In this document: in pieces, positions 1,344 to 61,385 of the stretch
Layout: each line of letters starts with the position of its first letter
Numbering within the stretch: the stretch's first letter is position 1
From: a virus
Lineage: Duplodnaviria > Caudoviricetes
Direction: 5' to 3' (one strand)
Length of the DNA: 61,861 bases
IMG/VR virus record: IMGVR_UViG_3300006919_000055
Location: 1 to 61,861 of that record
Translations under genes and position numbers: made by a program
The notes under the pieces: model-generated
Databases searched by the model: none
What the model was told of the DNA's origin: nothing
What the model saw: the letters and a program-made list of their open reading frames with translations, nothing else

Positions 1344-2402
1344 CTAGTTAGCGTTGGCAGACGCAAGGCGAGTGTAATCGTATGATTCCCAATTCTTTTG
1401 TTTAACAAGTTTTTTAATCTTTACTCCCACAAACCAATTAATGCAAGAGTAAATTGTTTTAGCATACAAATCATCGTATCCGGTTCCTTTTTTACCTCTA
1501 GCTGATGATTGAGCGTTGCTGTTAAGAACGTAATCTCTAAGTTTTAATACTGTATAGTCTGCATCATTTGTTGCTTGACCTGAAACGAAAACCTTTAGAA
1601 AATCTTCGCAAGATTTTACATTGGTCATAGCGAAACGAACGAGAGCGTTTACAACAGCGGTTTTTCTTAATTTTTTGAGATTCTCAGCCGAGCAGGGGTA
1701 ATCACTCTTAGCAATAGTGAGATAACTCAAGACGGTGTAAACTGCTTCTTTATTTTCTACGAGAAAAGATTCTACTTCTTCGTCAGTAGGATCAGAAGAT
1801 GCACACACTACCATTTGGCCTTCGGGCTTTAGATAGTGCTTGAGGATTCGCTTGGCAACATCACTAGCAATTCTGGCTGAAGTAGCGTTAGGTACAATAT
1901 GAGGGTAGTTCATCATTAGATGATCTTTTTGCGAGCGAATTTGTTGCCGATCTATTTTAACTTTAATCTCTGGCTCTCTACCGGAAGCTACATCAAAATT
2001 AACATCAAAACTATCATCATCACTAAGATGTTTAGCTAGAAGTAACGCAAGGATACGATGTTGAGCATCGACCAAAGCATAACCGTTTTTCTTGTTGCCA
2101 AACTTAACTGTGTCGCCCGTACTCATCCAATTACCGGAAAGCATATCTTTAAGCAGATTAACAGCTTTACCTAATTTAATAGGTCTATTTTCGGGATTAT
2201 AATAAGATAAAATATTAAGAAGAGTGTCTTTTGAAAGTGAGGCTGCTTCAGTCAACTTGGGAGCGTCATCCATGAAGGGGTGAGCGGGAAGAGCTTCGTT
2301 AGACTTTAAATATTCTTGACGGCGCGTTTGACAGTCCGTGTTCAGGTCGAGGCCAAGAGCCTCTTTGATATACTTTTTAGTAATATTAGTTGGGTTAGTC
2401 AT
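1344..2402 (-). CDS. ParB/DGQHR-like domain protein
   Basis: N-terminal NRP...DMLSGNW...LVDAQHRILA resembles the DGQHR signature of ParB-like phage proteins. Confidence 0.6.
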   Translation of the reverse strand: MTNPTNITKKYIKEALGLDLNTDCQTRRQEYLKSNEALPAHPFMDDAPKLTEAASLSKDTLLNILSYYNPENRPIKLGKAVNLLKDMLSGNWMSTGDTVKFGNKKNGYALVDAQHRILALLLAKHLSDDDSFDVNFDVASGREPEIKVKIDRQQIRSQKDHLMMNYPHIVPNATSARIASDVAKRILKHYLKPEGQMVVCASSDPTDEEVESFLVENKEAVYTVLSYLTIAKSDYPCSAENLKKLRKTAVVNALVRFAMTNVKSCEDFLKVFVSGQATNDADYTVLKLRDYVLNSNAQSSARGKKGTGYDDLYAKTIYSCINWFVGVKIKKLVKQKNWESYDYTRLASANAN

Positions 2403-2437
2403 GGGTTTGTTTAATTAAATTATTAATAAATTAAATT

Positions 2438-3235
2438 TTAGCCGAGTCCATTTTCGTTTAAGGCAGCTTGATACCCAGCATCATAAGAATCTTCGTCGTA
2501 ATCCTCAGAGTCAAAGTAGTCATCAACGAGAGGTTCTTCTAATTTCTTCTCAAAATGACCGACAACTTTGTATTTTGCTGTACGGAGTTTTTGACAGTCG
2601 CAATCTTTTGGTACGGAAACAACGTCAGCAGGATTAATTTCCACAATCATTAGATTTCCACCGTTACCGAAACCGCGAGCGTACTCCAAACTGCCAGCGT
2701 GAAAGCCAGCAGAACAACCTTGATCAGCGTCATCACAAACGCCTGAACGGCGCATCTCTTGAACGTCACCAACGTTATTAGAAAATTTGCCTGTGTGCCA
2801 ATCCTTAAAATTGTCATCTACGCTCTTGTAGGCGAGAAAATTGCCATCGGGAGTCAATGGCATATTCTTGTGTTCCAAGAAAGTGTAAAGCTCATTGATG
2901 GCGCGACGAGAGGGGTTCTCCATTAGTTTGTCGAGAAAACGAACGAGTGGGCCATAAGGAAGTCCTTCGCGCATAAAATCCAAAAGACGGTCTACCACAT
3001 GATTATGAATTTCTTCTCCATCGTAATAAACAACGCCGTGATCAACGGTAACTTTGCCATCACTATAACTAGGAACTGCCTTGCCAATATCAAATAAATC
3101 TTCTAGCTTATCGAACTCTTCCGCTTTAACAGCGGCTACGGCATGATCCCAATTAACGTGATCCTTGTTCATAGTTTGAGCTTTGCCGTTGATTACTACG
3201 GTGAGAGAAGATTCGGTTAGGATAAATGGAGTCAT
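2438..3235 (-). CDS. rIIB: rIIB-like protein
   Basis: LYTFLEHKNMPLTPDGNFLAYK, CSAGFHAGS, VEINPADVVSVP and KLRTAKYKVV motifs; follows rIIA. Confidence 0.9.
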   Translation of the reverse strand: MTPFILTESSLTVVINGKAQTMNKDHVNWDHAVAAVKAEEFDKLEDLFDIGKAVPSYSDGKVTVDHGVVYYDGEEIHNHVVDRLLDFMREGLPYGPLVRFLDKLMENPSRRAINELYTFLEHKNMPLTPDGNFLAYKSVDDNFKDWHTGKFSNNVGDVQEMRRSGVCDDADQGCSAGFHAGSLEYARGFGNGGNLMIVEINPADVVSVPKDCDCQKLRTAKYKVVGHFEKKLEEPLVDDYFDSEDYDEDSYDAGYQAALNENGLG

Positions 3236-3266
3236 GTTTAGTTCGCTTTCGTTATTATGTTTAAGA

Positions 3267-3294
3267 CAATACAGAATTTATAATTTTGAGTCAA
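3267..3294 (-). promoter_or_regulatory. sigma70-type promoter for rIIB
   Basis: TTGACT-17-TATTGT on the minus strand (coordinates approximate). Confidence 0.6.
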
Positions 3295-3339
3295 TCTTTT
3301 TCTTGGTTTTTTTTGCTATCTTGAGATGGGTAATTTTTT

Positions 3340-3383
3340 AAAAGGGAGACGCGGAAACAACCTACTTGAACCGCGCCCCCCTT
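3340..3383 (-). terminator. GC-rich hairpin after rIIA with a 16-nt loop
   Basis: 13-bp stem with two G-U pairs that form only on the minus strand, then a short U run. Confidence 0.7.
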
Positions 3384-3396
3384 GACTCGTAAAAAC

Positions 3397-5595
3397 CTAC
3401 CTTTTACGAGAAATATCGGCTAAATCAACCACATTTATGTAATTAATGGTATCTTTAAAAGCCTCTTGATCGGGCTTGAAATTATACTTAAATCTCCAAC
3501 CATCAACGTGTTTTAACATGGAGTATTTTTTGTTAAATTTCTCCAACATTTTGGACAAATCGTGAGTAGGAGGAGCATCTTCAGCTAAAGTTAGATTAAA
3601 GGTTCTAGCAATGTCATGAGCCTCGTCAATAATTTGAGCATCGTCTTTGTGATACATCAAGATTTGAGCGTCAACAAATTGTTTAGCCAATGAATCTTCT
3701 TTGATGATATTCGCAGACAAAGTTTCAAAATCAGAATCATGACGGTCAATATCAAAAGCATACTCAAGACTCTTAACTTCGGCACGGTCTACGACCATTT
3801 GAGATAGGTTTTTGGCTTCGATCAACTCCAAAGCTTTATTCTTTGCCCAAGTATATAAGTCAGTCCAATTAGGGTCATTTCTAAGAGACTCAACTTTTTT
3901 GGTTTGAGTAGCCTTTACTCCGTAAACATCTACGTCTAAAGTGTCATCGAGAACTTTTAATTTTTTAATAAATTGAACAATTACGTTTGCTTTATGTAGA
4001 GAGACATCTCCTTCATATAAAATTTTAGACTTGTAAGCATCCAATTCAACGTAAATACCTTCAGAGGGTAACTCTTCGCAAATTTCCCAGTGTTGAGATT
4101 GATTCCTGTCTCCCAAAATGTAATTGGGTTCATCCCAACTAACAAACTTGAAAAGCTTTTTGTTGGACTTAGGGTTGCTAGTACCGGAACCTCCAACGTA
4201 GCTGGCGCGTCCGTAGCCCCACTCAGAAAAGTCAGTAAGCTTGTTCTTTGGAAGCTCAGACAATTTAACGACTTTAGCGTCAAATCCGGTTTCTTTTACA
4301 TATTCTTTACGCGCTTCGTTGTCTTTGAAGCGGATCATGTAAACCTTCTTGTTCTCTTTGAGAAGCATAGGTAAAACGCGACCAAGAGTGCCGTTAGGAC
4401 GGAGCATATCGTTTTCAACGATAACGGTATCACGATCACAACTAATAGAGTGCTTGTCTGTGGGGCGATACTTTCCGGTGCGTCCTTTAGTGAATTGACT
4501 TATGCTTACCTTTTTGCCGTGAGCGTGAAAAGTATTGCACTCAACAAGTTGGCCTTTCCACTTGAGGTTCTTGCCTATAACGCGGTGCAAGTCGTAAAGA
4601 TTGCTGGAGTAGTCGAAAGTCGCGCCATAGAGGCATTTCGCGTCAAAAAGAGTATCGCAACCAGCAAAGCTACTCGTAATGCTTGCCATAATCTCTGCCA
4701 AGGCTACCTTGAGCTTCTTTTTAATATTCTTCTTAGTGTAGTCGGTGTATTGAAGCTTTTCGCGAGAAGCAGCAATTTCTAAATCTCCAATCTCAAAATT
4801 AAGAACAAGATTGCGAGTAAGAATGTCATCAATATCGCCATCGTCCTCAGTGAAATTTAGAGAGTGGCGATCAACAGGGTAAGCGATGTTACCCATAACT
4901 GCCATTGCACTGTGGTTTTGAGTGCCAAGATAGCTCCATCCATCTCCTTCGTACAATACGTCTGCATCCTCGATCTTGCTTCCACCGTGAATAATTGGGC
5001 GAGGATTAAACCAGCGGTAAAAATCCATCGCGGTTTCTTTGAAAGAATCAATATCATCACTTTTAATAGCGATAACAATTTCTAAACCATTCTTTTCGTC
5101 GGTATTTTCTGTTCCCAACTTGCTAATCTTACCGAGTCCAGAGGGATCAAGATAAGCGTTATGAATGTGTTTTACGCCATCAATGTAAGAATGAATAACA
5201 AAATTATCACCATAAGCAAATGCGCTTTTTGATCCAAGACCTAATTGTCCTGTAACCGCATTGGATTGACGCTTGGTGGACTCGCCATAAAAAGCATAAA
5301 CATCTTGAATCTCACTATCATTAAGAGCAAGACCAAAATCTCTAATTTTAAAAGTAGGAGAAAGCTTAGTGGGAAGAGTAATTTCAATAGGGGTATCAGC
5401 AATACCCGCTTCTACATGAGCGTCTGCCGCGTTTGTAGAATACTCGCGAATGATAGCGAGTTCTTTATCAGAATAAAGTTGGTTTCGGAGAACATTAAAA
5501 AGATGAGGAAGTCCGTCAGATTTAATTCCAAAAGTAACGGAGTTCTCAATTCCTGAAGTCGTAACGCTTTTTGTGTTTGTAGGTTGTTGTATCAT
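3397..5595 (-). CDS. rIIA: rIIA-like protein with N-terminal GHKL ATPase domain
   Basis: LYSDKELAIIREYSTNAADAH, IRDFGLAL, GESTKR, GQLGLGSKSAFAY, ASREKLQY motifs. Confidence 0.9.
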   Translation of the reverse strand: MIQQPTNTKSVTTSGIENSVTFGIKSDGLPHLFNVLRNQLYSDKELAIIREYSTNAADAHVEAGIADTPIEITLPTKLSPTFKIRDFGLALNDSEIQDVYAFYGESTKRQSNAVTGQLGLGSKSAFAYGDNFVIHSYIDGVKHIHNAYLDPSGLGKISKLGTENTDEKNGLEIVIAIKSDDIDSFKETAMDFYRWFNPRPIIHGGSKIEDADVLYEGDGWSYLGTQNHSAMAVMGNIAYPVDRHSLNFTEDDGDIDDILTRNLVLNFEIGDLEIAASREKLQYTDYTKKNIKKKLKVALAEIMASITSSFAGCDTLFDAKCLYGATFDYSSNLYDLHRVIGKNLKWKGQLVECNTFHAHGKKVSISQFTKGRTGKYRPTDKHSISCDRDTVIVENDMLRPNGTLGRVLPMLLKENKKVYMIRFKDNEARKEYVKETGFDAKVVKLSELPKNKLTDFSEWGYGRASYVGGSGTSNPKSNKKLFKFVSWDEPNYILGDRNQSQHWEICEELPSEGIYVELDAYKSKILYEGDVSLHKANVIVQFIKKLKVLDDTLDVDVYGVKATQTKKVESLRNDPNWTDLYTWAKNKALELIEAKNLSQMVVDRAEVKSLEYAFDIDRHDSDFETLSANIIKEDSLAKQFVDAQILMYHKDDAQIIDEAHDIARTFNLTLAEDAPPTHDLSKMLEKFNKKYSMLKHVDGWRFKYNFKPDQEAFKDTINYINVVDLADISRKR

Positions 5596-5696
5596 GGTAG
5601 GTTGTTTTTGGATTGATTAGATGCCCCACTCGCCAAACCAGAATGGAGAGGAGCCGAGTATTAATGCTATTACTAAGAACGTCATGGTAGGTTGTT
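5579..5696 (-). repeat. three copies of AACAACCTAC around the start codons of rIIA and the upstream small ORF
   Basis: Plus-strand GTAGGTTGTT at 5579-5588, 5597-5606 and 5687-5696. Confidence 0.85.
5617..5685 (-). CDS. 22-aa hydrophobic peptide (MTFLVIALILGSSPFWFGEWGI)
   Basis: Shares the ACAACCTACC-ATG start context with rIIA; lies downstream of a TTGACC-17-TAAGCT promoter. Confidence 0.55.
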   Translation of the reverse strand: MTFLVIALILGSSPFWFGEWGI

Positions 5697-5758
5697 GTCT
5701 TACTGTTGAGCATAGCTTAATACTTTAATAAGTTTAGGTCAAGGACTTTTTTAATTTT

Positions 5759-5953
5759 TTAATAATTGTTTTGTTTTTCCCTTAAACGCGAGATAAAAAG
5801 AGACTTACGATTCTTTTCGTATTTCTTTCTACTGGGCTTTTCATAGCGACTTCTATCTCTACATTCTTGTATAATGCCAGAACGTAAAACTTGTTTTTTA
5901 AATCTACGCAACGCGCCTTCAACGTTGCCCTTTTCTACTTTTGATTCAATCAT
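5759..5953 (-). CDS. rpsU: 30S ribosomal protein bS21
   Basis: 64 aa, basic; VEGALRRFKKQV..SGIIQECRDRSRYEKPS is the bS21 signature. Confidence 0.9.
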   Translation of the reverse strand: MIESKVEKGNVEGALRRFKKQVLRSGIIQECRDRSRYEKPSRKKYEKNRKSLFISRLREKQNNY

Positions 5954-6089
5954 CTTTTAGGTTTTTATTTATTTTATTTTTTAATATTTTAGCTTTTACT
6001 TTTTCTGGAAGAGAGTCAAATTTAATAATCTTCTTCTTCCAAAATCTTATATAGTCATCCTCTGATATTTGGCACTTTTTCGTTTGCAT
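5946..6089 (-). CDS. 47-aa basic hypothetical protein
   Basis: MQTKKCQISEDDYIRFWKKK...; fills the gap between sigma and rpsU and overlaps the rpsU start. Confidence 0.5.
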   Translation of the reverse strand: MQTKKCQISEDDYIRFWKKKIIKFDSLPEKVKAKILKNKINKNLKDD

Positions 6090-6094
6090 TTAAA

Positions 6095-6976
6095 CTATTT
6101 CATTTTATATTTTTTAATCCAAAACCTTAACTTTCTCAGTGCAGCTTCCTCTATTTGTCTTATTCTTTCTCTGGTAACTCTAAATCTTATTCCTATTTTC
6201 TCTAACGTTTCATAGTTTTTATTTTTTAATCCAAATCTATACTCAATTATAGCTCTTTCTCTGCGGTTTAGTTTTTTCAAACACAACTCTAGGATATTAT
6301 TGTCGCTACTTATGGACGCTAAAGAATCTGGAGTTTTAACAAGTACGTCCGGTATAGTGTCAGAAAGTGTGCTATTTGATTCCTCACTAGACGGTGGGGG
6401 AGAATCGAGTGAAAGCGTTGACTTGTCAGCATCCAAAAGGATAGACAGCTTAATTCGACATAAATTAAAATGCTCACATATTTCAGAGGAGCTAGGTGGT
6501 CTTGTATTCTTCTCTGTGAAGTCGTTAATAAAGTTGCGTACTTTTTTCTGTTGATCTATTAATCCAACCGGAAGTCTAATTGTGCGGCTTTTATTTGAAA
6601 GCCCTCTTCTTATTGCCTGTTTTATCCAATAAGAGCAATAAGTAGAGAAACGAGTGCCATGAGACGGATCAAATCTTTCAGCCGCTTTGATAAGCCCAAA
6701 ATTTCCTTCGCATACAAGGTCGGCAAAATCTAAACCTAAATTTCTGTAATCTTTAGCAATCTTAATTACTAATCTTAAATTGCATTCCACAAGAGTTTTT
6801 AGTGCTGCTCGACCATTTTTTCGAGTCTGCTGACCTGCTTTTGGAAAGTCTTTCCACGCTCTTATTTTGCGTCCAATCTCTTGCTCTTCTTTTTTAGAAA
6901 GAAGGGGATGCTCCGATAGATTAGTAAAGTATGAGTCAAGAGTAGCTTGCGGCGGGGGCGGAGTAGCTTCATTCAT
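6095..6976 (-). CDS. RpoD/RpoS-like sigma70 factor
   Basis: Region 1.2 (LLSKKEEQE), region 2 (NLRLVIKIAK..DLVCEGNFGLIKAAERFDP..RFSTYCSYWIKQAI), region 4 (TLEKIG..VTRERIRQIEEAALRKLR). Confidence 0.95.
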   Translation of the reverse strand: MNEATPPPPQATLDSYFTNLSEHPLLSKKEEQEIGRKIRAWKDFPKAGQQTRKNGRAALKTLVECNLRLVIKIAKDYRNLGLDFADLVCEGNFGLIKAAERFDPSHGTRFSTYCSYWIKQAIRRGLSNKSRTIRLPVGLIDQQKKVRNFINDFTEKNTRPPSSSEICEHFNLCRIKLSILLDADKSTLSLDSPPPSSEESNSTLSDTIPDVLVKTPDSLASISSDNNILELCLKKLNRRERAIIEYRFGLKNKNYETLEKIGIRFRVTRERIRQIEEAALRKLRFWIKKYKMK

Positions 6977-7020
6977 GAAGCAGCAATATTATATATATTA
7001 TAGAAAAATGTCAATTATTT

Positions 7021-7320
7021 TTAGAATAAATCTGTAAAAGGAGATTCGCCTTCATCGAATGACTTGTCTGGTTCTAATTTACATTTAAATTCATAACCAT
7101 CCATTTTAATCATGAAAGTCATTTTCTTTCCTTGGGCGTAATCATTTAATATTTTATACAAACATTCGTGACAGTAAATTTTATTTTTATATTTAAAATA
7201 AACTATTTTCTTGTTTTCGTACAAAATTTTATAATCACTAGCAGTATAAGAAATGCCACAAGAAGAACACTTGATCCTTCTTTTGCGATTATCTGGATTT
7301 ATTACTTCTGCACAAAACAT
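7021..7320 (-). CDS. putative zinc-finger protein
   Basis: CSSC and CHEC pairs. Confidence 0.55.
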   Translation of the reverse strand: MFCAEVINPDNRKRRIKCSSCGISYTASDYKILYENKKIVYFKYKNKIYCHECLYKILNDYAQGKKMTFMIKMDGYEFKCKLEPDKSFDEGESPFTDLF

Positions 7321-32298: not shown

Positions 32299-34734
32299 AT
32301 GGATTCCAAAGCTATTAATGTCAAAAAACGAAATGGTCGTTTAGAAGAATTAAACACAAACAAAATCAACAAATGCGTAGAAAGGGCTTGCGAAAATTTA
32401 AGTGATGTTTCGGCCAGTGAAGTAGTTTTAGATGCACATGTTCAACTTTACGATAAAATAACCACCAAGGAAATCGACAAAGCTCTAGTTATGTCTGCTA
32501 GAGCTAAAATGGAGAAAGAACCTAATTATTCTTACGTAGCTGCTAGGCTTCTTTTAGGAAATATACATAAAGAAGTATTTGGTAGCAGTGTTGATAAAGA
32601 TGCTTTTGAAAACCAATACCGACTTTCTTTTATTAAAAATATAAAACTTTTAGTAAAAGAATCAATTCTAGATGAAAGACTATTAGAATTTGATCTTAAA
32701 AAATTATCGGACTCTTTAAAATTAGAAAGAGATTTTAAGTTCAAATATTTAGGACTTCAAATTCTTTATGATAGATATTTTCACCACCTAGATGGAAGAA
32801 GATTAGAATCCCCACAATCTTTCTGGATGAGAGTAGCTATGGGCCTATGTATTAATGAAAAGGACAAGGAAGAAAAAGCTATAGAATTTTACAACACCCT
32901 TTCTCAATTCCATTTATGTTGTTCAACTCCAACGCTTTTTAACAGCGGAAGCACCCACAGTCAGTTATCTAGTTGTTACTTGAACACATTCGATGATTCA
33001 ATAGATGGAATTTTTGAAGGAGCGTGGCAAGAAGCTAGAAAATCAAAGTACGCAGGAGGCTTGGGTTTCGATGTTTCTAATTTTCGCTCTTCCGGATCGC
33101 ACATCAAAGGAACGAATGGGACATCTAGCGGTTTAGTACCTTGGTTAAAAATTTACAACGATTTATTAGTCGCGGTAAACCAAGGAGGCAAAAGGCCCGG
33201 AGCGGGATGCGCTTACCTAGAACCTTGGCATTTAGACATAGAAGACTTCCTAGACTTAAAGAAAAACACTGGAGAAGAACGTCGCAGATGTCACGATTTA
33301 AATACTGCTAATTGGCTTCCTAATTTGTTTTTTGAAAAAATCTCAAAAGGTCAAGATTGGTATTTATTCTCTCCTTCGGACGTAAGAGACTTACATGAAA
33401 CATACGGAGAAGATTTCGATAAGAAGTATAAGAAATACTGCAAGTTAGCGGACGCAGGTGAAATTGAAAATTACAAAAAAATCCCCGCTAAAGATTTATG
33501 GAAAAAAATGTTAAGAGTCTTGTTTGAGACAGGTCATCCTTGGATGACCTTTAAAGACAACTCTAACTTGAGATACTCTAACTCTCACGAAGGAGTAATT
33601 CACAGCTCTAATCTTTGCACTGAAATTTTCCTTCATACTAAACCCTCTAGATTTAACGAAGGAACTAAAACTGAAATCGGAGAAACTGCAGTCTGCAATT
33701 TAAGCTCAGTCAATTTAAAAGAGCATTTAAACGATAAGGGTGAATTAGATTATGAATTGTTGTCAAATACAATTAAAAATCAAATGCGAATGCTCGATAA
33801 TGTTATCGACTTGAACTTTTACCCAACAGAAGAAGCTAAGAAATCTAATTTATCTCACCGACCCGTAGGAGCAGGAAGCATGGGATGGCACGATGTCTTT
33901 CACTCATACAAACTAGACTACTCATCTGACGAGGCTGTCAAGTTGGCTGACGAGCTATATGAATTTATTTCTTATCACTGTATATTAAATTCGTCTAAAT
34001 TAGCCAAAGAACGAGGCGCTTATAAAACTTTTGAAGGCTCTTTATGGAATCAAGATATTCTTCCATTGGATACGTACAAAAGCTTAATGAATTACCTCGA
34101 TAAGAAACCTATATCTCACCGAGGAAAAAAATATGCTCCTGAAGTCGATTGGAAAGTTGTTAGGGAATCTATTAAAAGCGGCGGTATGCGTAATAGCAAT
34201 ACTATGGCTATTGCTCCTACTGCTACTATATCTTATATTCAAGGTTGCTCTCCTTCTATTGATCCTGATTTCTCTACCTTTTTCGTCTACGAAAACAAAA
34301 GCGGGAACTTATTTATAACTAACGAATGGTTCATTAAAGAATGCAAAGAGCTAAATATTTGGACCCCTAAATTAATTGACGCTTTAAAGGCTGTCGATGG
34401 AGACGTATCTCAATTAGAGCTTCCTGAAGACTTAAAAAGGAGATTCAGAGTTGCATTTGATCAAGATCAATTTAAGCTAGTTGACTGCGCTGCGGCTAGA
34501 CAAAAGTGGATAGACATGGGCCAATCTTTGAATTTATTTAATAATTCAACATCATTAAAATATTTGAATGACTTGTATTTTCATGCGAAAAATAGAGGAC
34601 TTAAAAGCACCTACTATTTGAGAAATAAATCTGCAAGTAAAATTGAAAAATCAACCAAGTCTAGCGCAGAGCCAGAAAACACATCTACGCCATCTTGCTC
34701 TATTCTAGACCCAACATGTGAAAGCTGCCAATAA
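32299..34734 (+). CDS. nrdA: ribonucleotide reductase class I alpha subunit with ATP cone
   Basis: VKKRNGR ATP cone, TPTLFNSG, LSSCY, SNLCTEI, VCNL, IAPTATIS, KSTYYLR, C-terminal CESC. Confidence 0.97.
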   Translation: MDSKAINVKKRNGRLEELNTNKINKCVERACENLSDVSASEVVLDAHVQLYDKITTKEIDKALVMSARAKMEKEPNYSYVAARLLLGNIHKEVFGSSVDKDAFENQYRLSFIKNIKLLVKESILDERLLEFDLKKLSDSLKLERDFKFKYLGLQILYDRYFHHLDGRRLESPQSFWMRVAMGLCINEKDKEEKAIEFYNTLSQFHLCCSTPTLFNSGSTHSQLSSCYLNTFDDSIDGIFEGAWQEARKSKYAGGLGFDVSNFRSSGSHIKGTNGTSSGLVPWLKIYNDLLVAVNQGGKRPGAGCAYLEPWHLDIEDFLDLKKNTGEERRRCHDLNTANWLPNLFFEKISKGQDWYLFSPSDVRDLHETYGEDFDKKYKKYCKLADAGEIENYKKIPAKDLWKKMLRVLFETGHPWMTFKDNSNLRYSNSHEGVIHSSNLCTEIFLHTKPSRFNEGTKTEIGETAVCNLSSVNLKEHLNDKGELDYELLSNTIKNQMRMLDNVIDLNFYPTEEAKKSNLSHRPVGAGSMGWHDVFHSYKLDYSSDEAVKLADELYEFISYHCILNSSKLAKERGAYKTFEGSLWNQDILPLDTYKSLMNYLDKKPISHRGKKYAPEVDWKVVRESIKSGGMRNSNTMAIAPTATISYIQGCSPSIDPDFSTFFVYENKSGNLFITNEWFIKECKELNIWTPKLIDALKAVDGDVSQLELPEDLKRRFRVAFDQDQFKLVDCAAARQKWIDMGQSLNLFNNSTSLKYLNDLYFHAKNRGLKSTYYLRNKSASKIEKSTKSSAEPENTSTPSCSILDPTCESCQ

Positions 34735-46014: not shown

Positions 46015-46427
46015 GACTTTATAATATATACGGGAAACTACAAAAGAAAAATGTTAGACCATATCTAATAGATTGGGACGGTAAATCTCGCTCTAAAATA
46101 CAATTTTCAGTAAAGCAATTTCTTAAGACCTTTTGGAAAACCCAAATGGTTTATGAAGAATTTCCCGTTTATGGCACTAAAATGAAAGTAGACATTCTTA
46201 ATGCTACAAAAAAAATAGCCATAGAGGTAAACGGAGGACAACATAATTCTTTTAATAAATTTTTTCATGCAAATTCCAGAGCCAATTACCTTAAATCTAT
46301 AAAAAGAGACATGGAAAAAAGCGAATGGCTAGAAAAAAATGATTTCACATTAGTTGAAATAGAAGAGGCCGAAGTTAAAAATATCTCAAAAGAGTTTTTT
46401 AAAAGTAAATTTGGTATAACATTATGA
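46011..46427 (+). CDS. Vsr/DUF559-like endonuclease
   Basis: EEFP, VDI, IAIEVNGGQH, RD..K..W. Confidence 0.75.
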   Translation: MRLYNIYGKLQKKNVRPYLIDWDGKSRSKIQFSVKQFLKTFWKTQMVYEEFPVYGTKMKVDILNATKKIAIEVNGGQHNSFNKFFHANSRANYLKSIKRDMEKSEWLEKNDFTLVEIEEAEVKNISKEFFKSKFGITL

Positions 46428-47719
46428 TTGATTGCATATATGTAATAGCTTTAGAAGAAAACCTCGTTAAAAAAAGAGAGGAAATTATAGAAAGAGTAAA
46501 TTCTCTTAAAATAGACTCTCAGCAATTAGTGTTGTTTAAAGCTGTTAACGGCTTTGATCCGAAGGTTGATTTTCAGTGGAGTTTATTTAACTGGAAGTTG
46601 GAAAATTCAGATAACTCTTGGTGGAATAGAGACATGAAACCCGGAGAAATTGGCTGCGCTTTGTCTCATTTATCAATCTGGAAACATGCATATTCTTTAA
46701 ATTATAAAAAAATTATTATTTTAGAAGAAGACTTTAAACCTATAAAGCAAATCGATCCAAATTTAATAAATGAACTTGATCAGAATGATTGGGACTTTTG
46801 TTACTTAGGCAGGAATAAGATAAAAGAAGACCAAAGTGAAGTATCTAATAATTTAGTGATTCCCGGATACTCTTACAATCTACACGCTTACATGCTATCG
46901 GATTCTGGGATTAAAAATTTATTACAATTTTCTTTTGAAAATAAAATAATGCCAGTTGATGAGTTTATTCCCGCTACTTTCTGCGATCACCCTAGACAAG
47001 ATTTAAATTTTATTTGGAAAGACACCAAAGCATTTTCATTTAAAGAGGACTACATAGGTCAATCTAGCACCAACACGGTAAGCTCTACAGAAAATTTAGA
47101 AAAAATAGTAAGTCCTCCCTCACAAATAAAAAACATTTCCAACTGGGATGAATGGAAAAGTAGGTATATAAATCCTGCCATGCTAGCAAAAGATTACGAC
47201 TTAATCGTAGAAGAGCCTGTCGCAGATGTAGCTCACTTCCCAATATTTACTAATAAATTTTGCGAGGAATTAATAGAAATGGCCGAAGAGGCTAATAAAT
47301 GGACTGAAGGTAGACATGACTATTACCCCACTCACGATGTATTGCTTTCGTCTTTAGGGTTTGATGAAATTTATAGAAAAGTCTTGTCGGAATTTCTTTA
47401 CCCATTAGCAGCTCACTACTACAAATTAGACGGGGGAAGATGGTTAAAATTAAATGCCGAGAATTTTATTATTAAATATTCTATGGAGAAGCAAGGATTT
47501 TTGTCTTTACATCATGACCAAAGCGTGTTAAGCTCGGTGCTTACTTTGAATGAGGATTTTGAAGGAGGTGGAACCTTCTTTTATCGCCAACAAAAAACCA
47601 TAATTGGTAAAACTGGCGAAATGTCTCTCCACCCCGGAATGATTTCCCACAGGCACGGAGCCAAACCCATCTCTAGCGGAACACGCTATGTCTTGGTGTC
47701 GTTTTTAAATTTACCTTAA
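46424..47719 (+). CDS. fusion of a GT25 (COLGALT-like) glycosyltransferase and a PLOD-like 2OG-Fe(II) lysyl hydroxylase
   Basis: N-half: GEIGCALSH, LEED, WDFCYLGR, YSYNLHAY, PVDEFIP. C-half: FPIFT..FCEELIE, LHHDQS, FEGGG, HPG..SHRHG, GTRY.LVSF. Confidence 0.85.
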   Translation: MIDCIYVIALEENLVKKREEIIERVNSLKIDSQQLVLFKAVNGFDPKVDFQWSLFNWKLENSDNSWWNRDMKPGEIGCALSHLSIWKHAYSLNYKKIIILEEDFKPIKQIDPNLINELDQNDWDFCYLGRNKIKEDQSEVSNNLVIPGYSYNLHAYMLSDSGIKNLLQFSFENKIMPVDEFIPATFCDHPRQDLNFIWKDTKAFSFKEDYIGQSSTNTVSSTENLEKIVSPPSQIKNISNWDEWKSRYINPAMLAKDYDLIVEEPVADVAHFPIFTNKFCEELIEMAEEANKWTEGRHDYYPTHDVLLSSLGFDEIYRKVLSEFLYPLAAHYYKLDGGRWLKLNAENFIIKYSMEKQGFLSLHHDQSVLSSVLTLNEDFEGGGTFFYRQQKTIIGKTGEMSLHPGMISHRHGAKPISSGTRYVLVSFLNLP

Positions 47720-47720
47720 T

Positions 47721-49280
47721 ATGAGCAGCAAACTATACAGAAGCGAACTAGAAAGGGAAACGCTTTACTCGCTATTAAAACATCCTAAAATTTATATAGA
47801 AAATCAATCTTGGATTAATCGAGAGAGTTTTCATCACCCCACTCATAAACAAATTTTTGACGTTTTTAAAATTCAAGTTTTAAACGGAGGCTCCACTGAC
47901 CCTGTTGTTATCGGTGAAAAATGTATTGAAGCAGGAGTCTTTGATAAAGACGGTGTAAACATAAAAGATTACATTAATAATATTGATCTTTTCAAAATTT
48001 CCCCCGAAGGAGCCAAAGAACTAGTTAATGACCTTTCTTTTAATCATGTTTTACGCAAAGCAGAAGATAAAATTTCTAAAATCCAAACTAAAATTTACTC
48101 TTCAGCTTCTGGGGATGACAAAGCTCAAACAATTCAAGAATTACAAGAAATTAGTAATGAAATAATCTTACCTAGTGACGAAGATACTCGTCCTAAAAAA
48201 ATCTATTCAGGGTATAAGAAAACGCTAAGAGATAGAGTTGATAATCCCGTGGAGCTAATGGGCTACGCTACGCCATTCCCTACGTTTAACACTATGTACG
48301 GTGGCTTTGAACCTAAAATGACATATGTTTTCGTAGGAAGAGGTGGCATCGGAAAAAGTACCATTTTACATTACTTTTCTAATCACCTATGTAAAGACCA
48401 CAACTTACCCACTTTAATTCTTGACACTGAAATGGCTGAAGAATTCGTAAAAGACCGATTCTTCGCGATGGAAACTAAAATTCCTAATTACGCCATTAGA
48501 ACTGGCAAAGTTAAATTTAATCCAGAACTTTCTTTAAAGTTTGACGAAGAGGTAGAGAAAATAAATGAAGATATGCCTTTGTATATTAAACACATACCGG
48601 AAGAAGGTATTGAGGAAATAAGGCAAATAATTTTAGAGTGGTACTACAATGAAGTAGGAGAAGGAAACCCCTGCGTAGTAACTTTTGATTACTTAAAATG
48701 TAACTCTAAGATGCTCAAGAATAACTGGGCCGAACATCAAGCTCTTGGAGAACTAATAGATCATCTCGATAAAATATGCACTAAAATTAATGCTATATTG
48801 CTAACGGCCATTCAAGCTAACAGAAAAGGTGATTCTTTCAACAGGTCATCAACCGAAGTTACTGATGACAGCACAATCATTGCAGACTCTGACCGAATAC
48901 AAAGATACGCCTCTTTTATTGCTGAAATTAGAATAAAAACTCCTGACGAAATTGTGCTTGATGAAGGCATTACCGCTGAAGAGGCAGAGGATGTCTTCCA
49001 AAATATAAATACGATAGGATTCAATCAGTTAAGATTTGGAACGCATAAAATGATCGTGTTTAAAGGGCGCAGCCAAGGTGAAAATGCGCCCGGAGCGTTG
49101 GATTTAGTATCTCGCCTCATGCCTAATGGTACATATAGGCTAGACAGAAATTATTTCAACCTTCATTACAATAACTTTGAAATCAGAGAGAAAGGTACTT
49201 TAAGAGAAATTACCACTCACGCGGAAAACAGACTAATGTTGGATGACATGAATCCCGCTGACGAAGAGGAGCTTATTTAG
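47721..49280 (+). CDS. dnaB: DnaB-like replicative helicase
   Basis: F..PTHKQIF, GRGGIGKS, LDTEM, FDYL, QANR, DSD.I. Confidence 0.9.
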   Translation: MSSKLYRSELERETLYSLLKHPKIYIENQSWINRESFHHPTHKQIFDVFKIQVLNGGSTDPVVIGEKCIEAGVFDKDGVNIKDYINNIDLFKISPEGAKELVNDLSFNHVLRKAEDKISKIQTKIYSSASGDDKAQTIQELQEISNEIILPSDEDTRPKKIYSGYKKTLRDRVDNPVELMGYATPFPTFNTMYGGFEPKMTYVFVGRGGIGKSTILHYFSNHLCKDHNLPTLILDTEMAEEFVKDRFFAMETKIPNYAIRTGKVKFNPELSLKFDEEVEKINEDMPLYIKHIPEEGIEEIRQIILEWYYNEVGEGNPCVVTFDYLKCNSKMLKNNWAEHQALGELIDHLDKICTKINAILLTAIQANRKGDSFNRSSTEVTDDSTIIADSDRIQRYASFIAEIRIKTPDEIVLDEGITAEEAEDVFQNINTIGFNQLRFGTHKMIVFKGRSQGENAPGALDLVSRLMPNGTYRLDRNYFNLHYNNFEIREKGTLREITTHAENRLMLDDMNPADEEELI

Positions 49281-53668: not shown

Positions 53669-54381
53669 TTGAAGATATTCCTAATACTTCTGAAAATTTA
53701 ACTTCTATTAACGAAAATACTCTTGAAAACGGAGTCTTCGAAAAATGGAATAATTTAAAAAAAGATATTACAATAGGAGTAGTTACGTATAGTCAAAATT
53801 ATCTCCTTAAAACTCTAATAAATTCTTTTCAAAGCCAAAATTCAGATAACTGGAAAATGGTAATAATACATGACGGGCCGATTAATAAGGATTTATATAG
53901 AAGTTTAATTGCTAATAAGTATCTGACCGACGAAAGGGTACTACTCGTAACTTCAGAGGGTAGGTATGATGATTACGGCCATTCTTTAAGAAATATAATC
54001 ATTCAAAAATATTGCAATACAGATTGGATACTTTTAACGAATGGAGACAACTACTATACCCCTAATTTCATAGAGAATATGACGCATGAAATTGGTAAAG
54101 ATAAAGATTTAGCTATGGTGGTTTTTCCCTGTATACTTCAAAGAGCGGCTGAAGATAACGATAGATTAAGACAAAACTTTACTAATGCGTCACCTGAAAT
54201 AAGAGTAGGATTTGTAGATATCGGTCAATTCATAGTTAAACACGAGTTTGCTCGCAAGTTTAAAATTAACCCAACTGCAATAGCAGACGGAGAATTTTGC
54301 GTTAACTGCGCGGCTGATATTAAAAAACATGGCAAAAAAATTCACAGAACATATTCCGTAGATTTTGTTCATAACAACTGA
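53665..54381 (+). CDS. glycosyltransferase family 2
   Basis: S.Q.Q..W...IIHDG, GHSLRN, TNGDNYY, DIGQF, ADG. Confidence 0.75.
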   Translation: MIEDIPNTSENLTSINENTLENGVFEKWNNLKKDITIGVVTYSQNYLLKTLINSFQSQNSDNWKMVIIHDGPINKDLYRSLIANKYLTDERVLLVTSEGRYDDYGHSLRNIIIQKYCNTDWILLTNGDNYYTPNFIENMTHEIGKDKDLAMVVFPCILQRAAEDNDRLRQNFTNASPEIRVGFVDIGQFIVKHEFARKFKINPTAIADGEFCVNCAADIKKHGKKIHRTYSVDFVHNN

Positions 54382-56945
54382 TGAGTGCGCTTAGTAAAAT
54401 TAAAAAAATAAATTTACCCCTTCATGGAGTAAGATTACCTTCTTACAACGTTTCCAATGAAGACAAGAGATCGTTTAAGCTTAGTGAAAGCCTAAATAAC
54501 GAAGAGTTTATTGAAAAAGTATGCCTCAATGCGCTTCAAGCCAAAAATCTTACTTCACCTGAGTATAAAGAAAGATTTGATTATGAGTTTAAAACTTTAA
54601 AAGAACTAGGTTTTATAGATTATGTATTATTAGTCTGGGATGTAGTTAATTACTGTAATAGAGAATCTATTCCTACGGGTCTTGGTCGAGGAAGTGCTGC
54701 GGGAAGCTTAGTGCTATACTTAATGGACATCACTCGTATTGATCCTGTTAAAAACGAACTCTTTTTTGAGAGATTTGTTTCTAAAATTAGAGCCAAGAAA
54801 AAAGAAGTTTCCGGAGTAACCTATCTTGATGGAGCGTTAATGTGTGATGTGGATTTAGATATATGTTACTACAATAGACAAAAAGTCCTCCAATATTTAG
54901 CAGATAGATTTTCTGGAAAAACTAGTAAGATTTTAACTCTTAATACGTTAAGCACTAAGCTATTAATCAAAGAATGCGGTAAAATAGCCGCAGCTAAGTC
55001 CGAGACTGAAATGAATACTGTATCCTCCATGATACCCAAGGTATTCGGGCAAGTAAAAGACTTAGAAGAAAGCTATGAAGAAGTAGAAGACTTCAAAGAT
55101 TGGTGCGATGAAAATAAAGAAGTTTATGACATCGCGTTAAAACTTCGAGGCTTAGTTAAAAATAAAGGCGTTCATCCTTCTGCAGTAGCAATTTCTTATG
55201 ACCCTCTCGAAAAATCTTGTCCTGTAGAGCTTACTTCAGATAAGAAAAGTACAGTAGCTTCTTTTGACATGAATTGGGTTTCTATATCTAATGTTAAATT
55301 AGATATTTTAGGATTAAGGGCTGTCTCCGTAGTGGATGACGTATGTAAACAAGTTGGCCTTAAGGTGACTGAAATTGATCTATCTCACGAAAGCATATAT
55401 CAAAATCTTTACGACCTTAAATCGCCTCATGGGCTTTTTCAAATCGAAGCAGAAACCAACTTTAAAGTTTGCAGAAAAGTTAAGCCAAAAAACTTAGAGG
55501 AATTAAGTGCTGTGCTAGCGCTTGCACGACCCGGAGCATTGGCTTTTGTAGATCAATACGCTAACTATACTAATAATGATGTATACGAAGCTATACACCC
55601 CTTCTTCGATGACATATTATCTTCAACTGGGGGTGTTGCGTTATATCAAGAGCAATTAATGAAAATGGCTCATAAAATCGGTTTCACGTTGGATGAGGCG
55701 GAAATCTTAAGAAGAATTGTTGGCAAGAAAAAGGTTTCTGAAGTAAGAAAATGGAAAAAGAAAATCAAAGATAAAATTGTAGAAAATAGACTTGCTGAAG
55801 ATGTAGGCGATGTTTTATGGAAAATTTTAGAAGATTCAGCTAATTACTCGTTTAATAAATCCCACTCGATTTCCTATGCTGCGCTTGCGGCAATTACAGT
55901 ATATTTAAAGTTTAATTACCCCCAACAATTCTTTTTAAGTTTACTTAAGATGACAAGGCATGAGCCTGATCCAATAAATGAAATTTCTAAGATTCATAAA
56001 GAGATGGATATTTTTGGGATTCAATTGCTCCCTCCTCACCTTACTAAATCTAAAATGGACTTTAGCCTAGAAGGTAAAGACATTCGCTTTGGACTTCTTT
56101 CAATCAAAGGAATTTCAGACAAGTCTATAGAAAAACTAGCTTCGTTCAAACAAGATTATGAATCTAAATTCGATATATTCGAAGCGGCCAAGCAAGCCGG
56201 ACTAAACATAGGTTCTCTTTGCGCTTTAATTCAAGCGGGAGCGTTAGAAGGAGACTTTGAGCAAAGTAGAACTAAAATAGTTTATGAATCTCAACTATGG
56301 AACATTCTTACCCCCAAAGAAAAAGTTGCTTGCCAAAGATTAGGTAAAAAGTTCTCTTACAATTTAGTTGAAATTATTAAATATTTAAAAGATAACCTTG
56401 ATGAAAAAGGCAAACCTTTCATAAAAGATACTAGGGTAGAAACAATCAGAAAAAAATCTGCGCCTTACGCTAAAATATTTCATATTAATAAAGTTTCTGA
56501 ATCTTTTGCTAATTGGTATTACGAAAAATTTTTATTAGGTTATACGTACAACAAATCTCTTAAAGATATTTTTGAAAAAGATCATTCAAGTTTAATTTCG
56601 GTAAGAACGGCCTGTGAAGTCGCCCTCCAACATAAAGTTAAATTTATCGGCTCTTTAGATGAAGACCCTTATAGCGGGGTTTCTCGATCAGCTAAAAAGA
56701 GCAGATACATGAGAATGCAAGTAAGTGATGATTCTGGTTCTATTAAGGTAATGATTTTCAATGAAAAAATGGATGCTTTTAAAAGTAATTACCGAGTAAA
56801 AGCTAATGACATAGTGTTAGTATATGGAACTAAATTTGAAGATGTAATTTTTGCTGACGAAATAGTAGTTAAAAGCGAAAAAGTATTTACCAAACTTTCT
56901 CAAATAAAAGATTCAGATGACGCTGAACAAATTCTTGACATTTAA
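54381..56945 (+). CDS. dnaE: DNA polymerase III alpha catalytic subunit lacking the PHP domain
   Basis: GF.DY.L.VWD, GRGSAAGSLV, FERF, DVDLD, KLDILGL, YQEQ, YSFNKSH, C-terminal OB fold. Confidence 0.93.
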   Translation: MSALSKIKKINLPLHGVRLPSYNVSNEDKRSFKLSESLNNEEFIEKVCLNALQAKNLTSPEYKERFDYEFKTLKELGFIDYVLLVWDVVNYCNRESIPTGLGRGSAAGSLVLYLMDITRIDPVKNELFFERFVSKIRAKKKEVSGVTYLDGALMCDVDLDICYYNRQKVLQYLADRFSGKTSKILTLNTLSTKLLIKECGKIAAAKSETEMNTVSSMIPKVFGQVKDLEESYEEVEDFKDWCDENKEVYDIALKLRGLVKNKGVHPSAVAISYDPLEKSCPVELTSDKKSTVASFDMNWVSISNVKLDILGLRAVSVVDDVCKQVGLKVTEIDLSHESIYQNLYDLKSPHGLFQIEAETNFKVCRKVKPKNLEELSAVLALARPGALAFVDQYANYTNNDVYEAIHPFFDDILSSTGGVALYQEQLMKMAHKIGFTLDEAEILRRIVGKKKVSEVRKWKKKIKDKIVENRLAEDVGDVLWKILEDSANYSFNKSHSISYAALAAITVYLKFNYPQQFFLSLLKMTRHEPDPINEISKIHKEMDIFGIQLLPPHLTKSKMDFSLEGKDIRFGLLSIKGISDKSIEKLASFKQDYESKFDIFEAAKQAGLNIGSLCALIQAGALEGDFEQSRTKIVYESQLWNILTPKEKVACQRLGKKFSYNLVEIIKYLKDNLDEKGKPFIKDTRVETIRKKSAPYAKIFHINKVSESFANWYYEKFLLGYTYNKSLKDIFEKDHSSLISVRTACEVALQHKVKFIGSLDEDPYSGVSRSAKKSRYMRMQVSDDSGSIKVMIFNEKMDAFKSNYRVKANDIVLVYGTKFEDVIFADEIVVKSEKVFTKLSQIKDSDDAEQILDI

Positions 56946-60635: not shown

Positions 60636-61385
60636 ATGAGGAAAAAGAAAGCAGAATTACCCGAACTAGGCGTCACACGTAATTCCGGTGGTTTGATTAA
60701 CGACGGATCAGTCGATTACCATTTCACAGAAGACGGAATGATTGATTGGCGTAAAATGGTTAAGGATTGCTATCTTTACCCAAACCCCAGCAAAAATCTC
60801 ACTGAAACAGATATATCTAAGCTAGATGATCGTGACTTGTGCATTCTCTTAGGAGGCTTGAAAGAATTAGCTCAAATCAGAGGCTACACCAGCGTAGACT
60901 ACGAGGTGGTCGCCCCTTCTCCAGATTGTGTTATTGCTACGTGCAAAATTACTTGGACTCCTAATTATGAAACCGAAAATAAAGAGGTAACTTTTTCTGC
61001 AATCGGTGATTCATCGCTCAACAACACTTCTGGTATTGGAGGAGTTTACTATTTAGCGTCAACCGCAGAAAATAGAGCGTTCGCTCGATGCATTCGTAGC
61101 TTTTTGAGGATTAACGTTGTCTCTAGAGAAGAACTCGCGAAAGGCTTCTTGAAGGCTAAAACTGAAAGCTCCTCTTCAACAGTGAGTGCTGGCTCATCAT
61201 CTCCCGCCAGCCTACTAGAAGCTACAATGAAGAAGAAGGGGCTATCTTTCTCTCAACTAAAATCTAAGTTAGTTGATGAAGGCGTTTCTGGAGCAGAAGA
61301 AATGAGTTCTGTAAACGATATTCCAAACGATAAAATCTTCGAGTTGATCGATAGAATTAAAAAGGCTAAAGCAAAAGCTGCTTAA
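60636..61385 (+). CDS. Rad52/Sak-like single-strand annealing protein
   Basis: GLKELA, FSAIGD, TAENRAFARCIR..L. Confidence 0.55.
   Translation: MRKKKAELPELGVTRNSGGLINDGSVDYHFTEDGMIDWRKMVKDCYLYPNPSKNLTETDISKLDDRDLCILLGGLKELAQIRGYTSVDYEVVAPSPDCVIATCKITWTPNYETENKEVTFSAIGDSSLNNTSGIGGVYYLASTAENRAFARCIRSFLRINVVSREELAKGFLKAKTESSSSTVSAGSSSPASLLEATMKKKGLSFSQLKSKLVDEGVSGAEEMSSVNDIPNDKIFELIDRIKKAKAKAA

Follow-up and report, generated by a model that had tools for sequence, protein, structure and literature searches.

The DNA analysed here, hereafter the window, is the whole of IMG/VR record IMGVR_UViG_3300006919_000055, 61,861 bases of a caudoviricete phage with a CheckV completeness of 39%, and our subject is its rIIA gene, whose message appears able to pair end to end. 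On the minus strand, the genes follow one another in mRNA order as a sigma-70-family factor, the ribosomal protein bS21, an open reading frame (ORF) of 22 codons, rIIA and rIIB (Table 1). Three copies of one motif, which we call R1, R2 and R3, surround the start codons of the small ORF and of rIIA, and two hairpins lie at and just past the rIIA stop codon, with loops complementary to the motif. Related phages are referred to below by the L numbers of the rIIA loci fetched for comparison.

The motif AACAACCTACC runs directly into the ATG of rIIA (5595-5593) and into that of the small ORF (5685-5683), and a third copy, ACAACAACCTAC, occupies rIIA codons 2-6; all three had been reported in a first-pass annotation of this DNA and were found as described. 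The same holds for the 3' end of the gene, where the hairpin at 3342-3383 has 13 pairs, nine of them G-C, and a loop of 16 nucleotides (nt), TTCAAGTAGGTTGTTT. A correction is that the minimum-energy fold adds three pairs within this loop, and freeing the 11 nt concerned costs 1.9 kcal/mol. Those 11 nt, GTAGGTTGTTT (3355-3365), are the exact complement of AAACAACCTAC at 5597-5607, and the related word GGTAGGTT spans the stop codon TAG (3397-3399) inside the loop region of hairpin 1. The motif GUAGGUU recurs about 35 nt past this stop codon. Hairpin 1 has a pairing capacity of its own, in that its GGUAGGUU is complementary to AACCUACC of both R1 and R2. The predicted start-loop duplexes have energies of -13.5 kcal/mol for 11 base pairs (bp), -12.6 for 10 bp and, with hairpin 1, -10.7 for 8 bp, compared with opening costs of 1.9 kcal/mol for the hairpin-2 loop, 2.75 for the hairpin-1 site and 0.15 (R2) to 1.4 for the 5' sites.

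Several controls indicate that this complementarity is unusual within the window. The 11-mer AAACAACCTAC occurs only at the two sites given above, against 0.04 expected by chance, and two copies arose in 0 of 100 shuffles. For the 121-nt 3' region, the computed folding energy is -40.1 kcal/mol (z = -4.6), which 0 of 200 shuffles matched. Among 82 window genes, rIIA has the longest complement between start and 3' region, and every other long complement consists of A/T alone; none of the other hairpin loops in the window matches the start of its own gene. The strongest other hairpin lies at 1293-1331 on the minus strand, 12 nt past the end of gene 1344..2402; it has 15 pairs, and no start region is complementary to its loop, TCCCCTTTC. 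Rfam returned only two chance-level matches over 2300-7100 (E = 0.64 and 0.78, far under the gathering scores). Among the variants listed for contigs from sequencing runs, none falls in the hairpins or motifs, which is not evidence that these are invariant.

Relatives were sampled as 150 rIIA loci, 70 from viral contigs and 80 out of 403 confirmed loci from metagenome contigs, mostly marine and uncultured. Merging identical windows and dropping one N-containing locus left 102 unique loci with both ends. Each was scored by the longest Watson-Crick complement between its start region (-25 to +30) and its 3' region (-15 to +93 around the stop). Duplex energies over the whole 108-nt 3' windows (-22.8 versus -20.2) are dominated by G+C-rich stems and make a poor statistic, so the longest complement was used instead. 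The mean was 8.07 when each start was compared with its own 3' end and 6.60 in shuffled pairings, and the observed value was reached in 0 of 5000 permutations. Dinucleotide shuffles of the 3' region gave P <= 0.05 in 40 of the 102 loci and P <= 0.01 in 22. In a tree of rIIA proteins (FastTree, midpoint-rooted, with several long branches flagged), all 40 significant loci fell within one clade of 70, composed of 68 rows with SH-like support of 95 plus L139 and L143, and none among the 32 loci outside it; the rIIA of clade members is only about 40% identical to that of the window. A complement of at least 8 nt was present in 61/70 clade loci and in 1/32 of the others.

The two partners also have preferred positions. 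The 5' site overlapped positions -15 to +15 in 59 of the 61 loci and touched the AUG in 26, and it slid along the start region from -25 to +26, counted from the ATG. In the minimum-energy fold, 80% of the nucleotides making up the 3' site were unpaired, as against 47% over the entire 3' window. Clade loci have one or two G+C-rich hairpins each, with loops of about 9 to 16 nt, and the stop codon itself sits in a hairpin loop in 19/70 of them (1/32 outside). A 19-nt window centred on the stop codon was complementary to the start region over 7 nt or more in 30/70 clade loci and 0/32 others, while six control windows inside the ORF gave 0-4/70. Loci outside the clade lack the hairpins, and there the rIIB start follows within a few dozen bases of the rIIA stop. 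A distant, G+C-richer clade (L161-L173) has hairpins and no significant Watson-Crick complement. In five loci (L161, L163, L164, L170 and L189) the leader ATTACTCAACCTACTACTAA resembles duplicated N-terminal codons of rIIA, tblastn having aligned it to residues 1-9. The 3' region TTAGTGGTGG of the L161 clade could pair with this leader only via two G.U pairs; a 10-bp pairing seen by eye in L161 is not claimed here.

A strong argument for pairing is that both sides change together. The commonest start/loop pair across lineages is AAACCTAC / GTAGGTTT, and other lineages have ACAGTCCATTA / TAATGGACTGT, AAACCCGTT / AACGGGTTT, ACAGTCCACTA / TAGTGGACTGT or CCTACTAT / ATAGTAGG, while L126 has AAGAAATCCTAC / GTAGGATTTCTT and L206 has CTATGAAAC / GTTTCATAG. 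Further versions, each with its complement, are AAACCCGTTAA in L211 (11 nt), CCTACCACAAA in the L247 group, CCTATTGAC in L267 and AAACCTATAA in L269. The paired sequences differ in about nine classes between lineages, and complementarity is retained. We looked for relatives that carry the start motif without a complementary loop, an outcome that would have spoken against the proposal of the first-pass annotation that a 3' hairpin loop pairs with the start region of the same message, and found the opposite: the arrangement and its complementary loops are kept.

A particular register recurs within this material. Pairing of the A of the AUG with the U of the stop codon was found in 14 of 102 loci, in five sequence classes, whereas each of the other 24 registers occurred in 0-3 loci. 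Sliding the register by 1-3 nt reduced the paired cells from 128/168 to 25-54/168. In its third base, the stop codon (UAA or UAG) covaried with U or C at position -2 from the AUG in 14 of 14 loci (the underlying tabulation also holds L220); these loci were preselected for at least 7 pairs in the AUG-stop register, and the informative part is the change between close sisters, such as L131, with UAA and U, and its sister L235, with UAG and C. The hairpin stems give a complementary picture. L192, whose rIIA is 82% identical to that of the window, has an identical 16-nt loop on a stem with a G-C to A-T double change. The loop core GTAGGTT was invariant in 14 sequences with differing stems, in which 7 of 8 consensus pairs changed on both sides, as read from an imperfect alignment.

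A second 5' word was noticed in many relatives. A conserved CAGTTAAAC-like word lies about 15-25 nt 5' of the rIIA ATG, at the likely 5' end of the message, in L216, L122, L131, L200, L235 and others. In L216, 11 nt of the second 3' hairpin's loop are its complement (GAGTTAAACAT), in L122 the match extends over 7 nt, and in the L216 lineage the two loops may between them cover the whole short leader.

The pairing appears to be specific to rIIA. Exact copies of the motif ACAACCTAC number four in the 61,861 bases, all between 3357 and 5695, three in sense orientation at starts and one antisense in the loop, so the whole-record scan places them only at rIIA, the small ORF and the 3' loop. With one mismatch, 13 copies were found against 8.06 expected, which is no enrichment; only the exact copies cluster. 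Similarly, L183, a relative of 136.5 kilobases (kb) and 79% completeness, has just two exact copies of the 10-mer AAACCTACTA, one at the rIIA 5' site and the other in the 3' loop, and one-mismatch matches to this 10-mer have control frequency (12 versus 15). The 14-mer AACAACCTACCATG gave at least 116 scattered single matches in viral contigs, as chance predicts. Since the motif pair is found only at rIIA in both the window and L183, the pairing would be gene-specific rather than the mark of a regulon, and the suggestion that early genes share the start motif found no support: in the window, only rIIA and the small ORF of the same unit carry it.

Shine-Dalgarno-like words precede 15 of 83 window genes, against 8.7% at random positions, and neither the small ORF nor rIIA was found to have a GGAG-like word before it; what the 3' partner matches is sequence flanking the AUG and not a Shine-Dalgarno word. 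Because such words are rare, access to the start region should be limiting. Seven genes of the window (for example those at 60636, 56970 and 30118 on the plus strand and at 6976, 19934 and 8124 on the minus strand) have a TTGAC-N17/18-TAnnnT site ending 3-10 nt before the ATG, and would by this reading have leaderless or nearly leaderless messages. The idea that the motif is a ribosome-binding site that pairs with 16S rRNA was dropped, as other window genes lack the motif and lineages with different motifs stay complementary.

Taken together, the comparisons make it very probable that the start region and the 3' loops are under selection for pairing at the RNA level. Action on RNA within the rIIA message is suggested by three properties: the 3' copy lies in a hairpin loop, the 5' copy falls where the 30S subunit must sit, and the sequence changes freely if both sides match. 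We propose a model in which the rIIA unit consists of a promoter, the small ORF, rIIA and the two hairpins, and in which the 3' end of the mRNA would fold onto its own start. The single-stranded loops would pair with 8-12 nt just before, on or after the rIIA AUG and, in the lineage of the window, would additionally match the start of the small ORF. Such pairing would form on a finished mRNA, or between copies of it, and would block new initiation, so that rIIA would be translated mainly while its message is nascent or still loaded with ribosomes. A ribosome on the last codons would melt hairpin 1, with the stop in its loop, and would briefly free the partner of that loop. Whether the net effect is repression we regard as evenly balanced, and to the model as a whole, in which the tail of the rIIA mRNA pairs with its own start and represses initiation, we give a probability of about 0.5.

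Several observations weigh against this model. Only identical windows were merged, and near-duplicates remain, so that the locus counts overstate the number of independent events, for which the roughly nine sequence classes are the safer measure. Complements shorter than 8 nt were obtained for 9 of the 70 clade loci. By a crude parse, a T run follows a hairpin in 22/70 clade loci, and many of the hairpins are not obvious terminators; the 5' and 3' ends of the rIIA mRNA are themselves predicted from sequence. Translating ribosomes could keep a pairing over a range of 2.2 kb from forming. Finally, wobble pairs do not identify the strand. The pairs that flank the duplex include 22 G.U and 28 A.C, and the interior ones 1 G.U and 5 A.C, and when one non-Watson-Crick pair was allowed the sense strand won in 12/70 loci and the antisense strand in 13/70 (non-cognate pairings, 105 versus 192). 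As the wobble tests favour neither strand, the case for sense-RNA pairing rests on context and not on wobble pairs.

The main rival to occlusion of the start has the opposite sign. In this alternative, the tether would set the stop codon beside the start codon, and terminating ribosomes or their 30S subunits would re-initiate on the same message, giving net activation. The fixed AUG-to-stop register, seen in 14/102 loci and five sequence classes, would suit such a closed loop, as would a stop codon placed in a hairpin loop (19/70 clade loci, 1/32 outside). A ribosome at the stop would also spare hairpin 2, whose stem begins about 14-16 nt past it; outside the clade, the hairpin-free arrangement with rIIB starting so close to the rIIA stop may permit coupling; and such re-use could be useful where Shine-Dalgarno recruitment is weak. 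However, 5' sites that fall in the ribosome footprint in 59/61 loci, and on the AUG in 26, should hinder initiation rather than help it, and a stop codon cannot be paired and decoded simultaneously. Moreover, we know of no such stop-to-start tether in bacteria, although no search was aimed at one. We consider the closed loop doubtful. The same grade applies to its fullest form, in which the rIIA message would be a pseudo-circle, with the stop laid on the start, the second loop tethering the ends during termination and ribosomes being handed back. If true, a phage would encode its own counterpart, built from RNA alone, to the eukaryotic closed loop, for a host that relies little on Shine-Dalgarno recruitment. 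A small RNA acting in trans, the second option of the first-pass annotation, is less plausible and seems unlikely to us: the hairpins, outlasting decay of the mRNA or made separately, would pair with the starts of rIIA and the small ORF on fresh messages and bring about a delayed, dose-dependent shut-off. The same complementarity and covariation would be expected as for action in cis, the three 5' target copies and two 3' loops would fit, and G+C-rich hairpins at the 3' end tend to be a message's most stable part, but the targets lie only in the transcription unit of origin in the window and in L183, which makes cis action simpler, and no internal promoter or processing site was identified there.

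Protection of the message is distinctly improbable as the main function. In this case, the contact between the ends would either screen the 5' end or an RNase site (the case of hbs) or create an RNase III site (that of icaR). Both outcomes are documented for known bacterial pairings between the untranslated regions (UTRs) at the 5' and 3' ends (PMC7821165), and the 5' UTRs of the rIIA messages appear very short, judging by the distance from promoter-like site to ATG, but the sequences do not tell such protection apart from translational control. Far less likely than any of these is a role at the level of DNA, where the two sites make up an inverted repeat bracketing rIIA and might serve a DNA-binding protein, an invertase or an antisense promoter. 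The wobble tests, which do not favour sense RNA, leave room for it. Against it stand the roughly nine different repeat sequences and the sliding of the 5' copy from -25 to +26, which are unlike a protein site, the placing of the 3' copy in the loop of a hairpin with a covarying stem, and the constant orientation of the segment: rIIB was downstream on the same strand in 95 loci, seven further hits inside or before rIIA were also on the same strand and 0/102 were inverted (another 13 loci had no hit and 12 had too little DNA), and contigs of four runs had zero strand-changing joints. An invertible segment (inverton), of which only one orientation was seen, is not supported. A bypass of the type known from T4 gene 60, with take-off ahead of the hairpin-1 stop and a landing site in the motif copy of hairpin 2, was rejected and has a negligible chance of being right; a stop codon in a hairpin loop and the recurrence of GUAGGUU downstream recall such a system, but in L127 the two loops share the same 14 nt, stop codon among them, and a landing ribosome would run into that stop once more. 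In L132 there is no match between the codons that precede the motif, and the second hairpin of the L121 group is free of the motif.

Start occlusion by a distant 3' end has partial precedents. In icaR of Staphylococcus aureus, the long 3' UTR carries an anti-Shine-Dalgarno motif, UCCCC, that pairs with the ribosome-binding region of the same mRNA, and the motif is absent from S. epidermidis (PMC7821165). The rIIA message resembles it in that a 3' sequence would pair with its own ribosome-binding region, and differs in that the partner flanks the AUG and contains no Shine-Dalgarno word, in that the 3' side lies in a hairpin loop, of which the stop codon is often part, and in that pairing is kept with changing sequence across proteins about 40% identical. 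In the type I toxin mRNAs hok and aapA, the finished mRNA is locked by its 3' end on the 5' ribosome-binding region, and translation is confined to the time until the 3' end has been made or once it has been trimmed (PMC6733600). The lock on a full-length message proposed here is similar, and the first cistron of the unit in the window encodes a hydrophobic peptide of 22 residues. However, as described in that article, hok and aapA messages are of a few hundred nt and have anti-Shine-Dalgarno sequences, extended helices and an antisense RNA partner, whereas rIIA spans 2.2 kb, the contact is between a loop and a linear strand, most relatives lack the small ORF, and rIIA is not known to have an antisense RNA.

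The hbs message of Bacillus subtilis likewise joins its ends by a short pairing, a 14-nt interaction of 5' and 3' UTR that protects it against RNase Y, and its 3' UTR is not conserved among close relatives (PMC7821165); RNase protection is a feature of hbs. Among phages, the start regions of T4 e, soc, 49 and I-TevI are sequestered in local hairpins of tens of nt (PMC3014915). The likeness lies in translation control by a start hidden in RNA structure and tied to the transcript made, and the T4 helices are local. According to the same article, the repressor of T4 rIIB is the RegA protein and not an RNA pairing; rIIA is mentioned in it 0 times. In the eukaryotic closed loop (cap-eIF4E-eIF4G-PABP-poly(A); PMC7821165), the ends are joined and re-use of terminating ribosomes is favoured; that loop is mediated by proteins, unlike the direct RNA-RNA contact over the start codon region proposed for rIIA.

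Few bacterial mRNAs, namely icaR, hbs, hok and aapA, are known to pair end to end, and comparative proof has been hard to get because the icaR motif and the hbs 3' UTR are poorly conserved. What is new relative to these cases is the AUG-flanking partner, the contact of a loop with a linear strand over 2.2 kb, the involvement of the stop codon and the conservation with compensatory change across a large phage clade. The same principle would now extend to a gene of a double-stranded DNA phage, with natural compensatory changes in a clade common in marine metagenomes. This clade offers a natural mutant series on the contact between loop and start and on initiation without Shine-Dalgarno, and points to tight control of rIIA dosage or timing. 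Among full-text articles on rIIA together with RNA structure or pairing, translational repression, antisense RNA, S21 or covariation, we found no description of such a pairing; most of the articles matching the gene name concern Fc-gamma receptor IIA. To our knowledge, regulation of this classic gene has not been described outside T4.

Table 1. Features of the rIIA region of the window
Feature	Position	Strand	Basis or remark
Sigma-70-family factor	6095..6976	-	
Ribosomal protein bS21	5759..5953	-	Pfam PF01165, E = 2.2e-14
Promoter-like site of the rIIA unit: TTGACC (5737-5742), 17-nt spacer, TAAGCT (5714-5719)	5714..5742	-	sequence reading; predicted function
R1, start-motif copy ACAACAACCTACC, directly 5' of the small-ORF ATG	5686..5698	-	10 nt complementary to hairpin-2 loop
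Small ORF, hydrophobic peptide of 22 residues, MTFLVIALILGSSPFWFGEWGI; first cistron of the rIIA unit	5617..5685	-	ORF list
R2, start-motif copy AAACAACCTACC, directly 5' of the rIIA ATG	5596..5607	-	exact 11-nt complement of hairpin-2 loop
rIIA coding sequence, 732 residues	3397..5595	-	PHROG phrog_612 'RIIA lysis inhibitor', E = 2.3e-107, residues 6-718
R3, start-motif copy ACAACAACCTAC, rIIA codons 2-6	5579..5590	-	present in all of L191-L195
Hairpin 1: 10-pair stem, loop GUAGG (3396-3400) holding the stop UAG (3397-3399)	3386..3410	-	fold; kept in L191 and L192
Hairpin 2: 13-pair stem, 16-nt loop (3355-3370) displaying GUAGGUUGUUU	3342..3383	-	fold
Short U run past hairpin 2 (UUUU, then AAAAAA); likely transcript 3' end	3340..3343	-	termination predicted; only 4 U
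Separate promoter-like site before rIIB, TTGACT-17-TATTGT	3266..3294	-	consensus scan
rIIB, 265 residues; next gene, outside the pairing	2438..3235	-	PHROG phrog_609 'RIIB lysis inhibitor', E = 2.9e-71

The putative ends of the rIIA transcript are marked by features of unequal quality. The promoter-like site of the unit was absent from the consensus promoter scan because its second hexamer is weak in the window; it is kept in five close relatives as TTGAC[CT]-17-TA[AT]..T, with TATAGT in L194 and L195. As an intrinsic terminator, hairpin 2 would have its 13 pairs followed by UUUU, but its loop of 16 nt exceeds the 8-nt limit of the terminator scan, which did not list it. The sole RNA run (X20) yielded a single contig of 226 bases within rIIA, covering three bins, which says nothing on transcript ends, on hairpin expression or on a small RNA.

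The five close relatives just mentioned (L191-L195), whose rIIA proteins are 72-98% identical, show how the start motif is preserved at short range. The sequence AACAACCTAC[CG]ATGAC at the small-ORF start is invariant in the window and all five. R2 is present as AAACAACCTACC or, in L192-L194, as A[TAC]ATCCTACC, and every base of rIIA codons 1-8 is invariant in the six sequences. The small ORF has 22 codons in 6/6 sequences; 10 of its residues never vary (MT.L.IA.I....P.W.G..G.), and the peptides are 68-100% identical to that of the window. Nucleotide differences between close relatives fall inside this ORF. In size and composition, the peptide is like small membrane peptides such as type I toxins. 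Contig alignments break at 5601/5681-5687 in two runs, X19 with a joint that skips 79 bases and X4 with a loose end at 5681; because the alignments break there, the small-ORF segment, which lies between two direct AACAACCTACCATGA copies, differs between strains.

The phage of the window has no near relative in culture. Annotated rIIA genes of cultured phages share no more than 28-32% identity with its rIIA (tblastn), a megablast of the region against cultured phages gave zero matches, and among full-length matches in cultured phages the best one to its DnaE-type polymerase has 25% identity. Viral contigs scanned with one protein yielded zero relatives; a separate protein search found many, from marine sources. 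The lineage appears widespread: positions 3200-5900 were recovered near-whole in 19 DNA runs, which belong to 13 studies and are labelled marine, seawater, plankton, sponge and freshwater; three of these runs are possibly the source of the record, and contigs of run X7 covered 8 of 30 bins of the stretch.

Directly upstream of the rIIA unit, the phage-encoded ribosomal protein bS21 adjoins the sigma-70-family factor. No tRNA genes were found in the window. The replication module on the plus strand (32299-34734, 46424-49280 and 54381-56945) encodes, besides the DnaE-type (Pol III alpha-like) polymerase, the large subunit of a class I ribonucleotide reductase, a helicase of DnaB-like type and a protein in which a 2OG-Fe(II) oxygenase domain is present.

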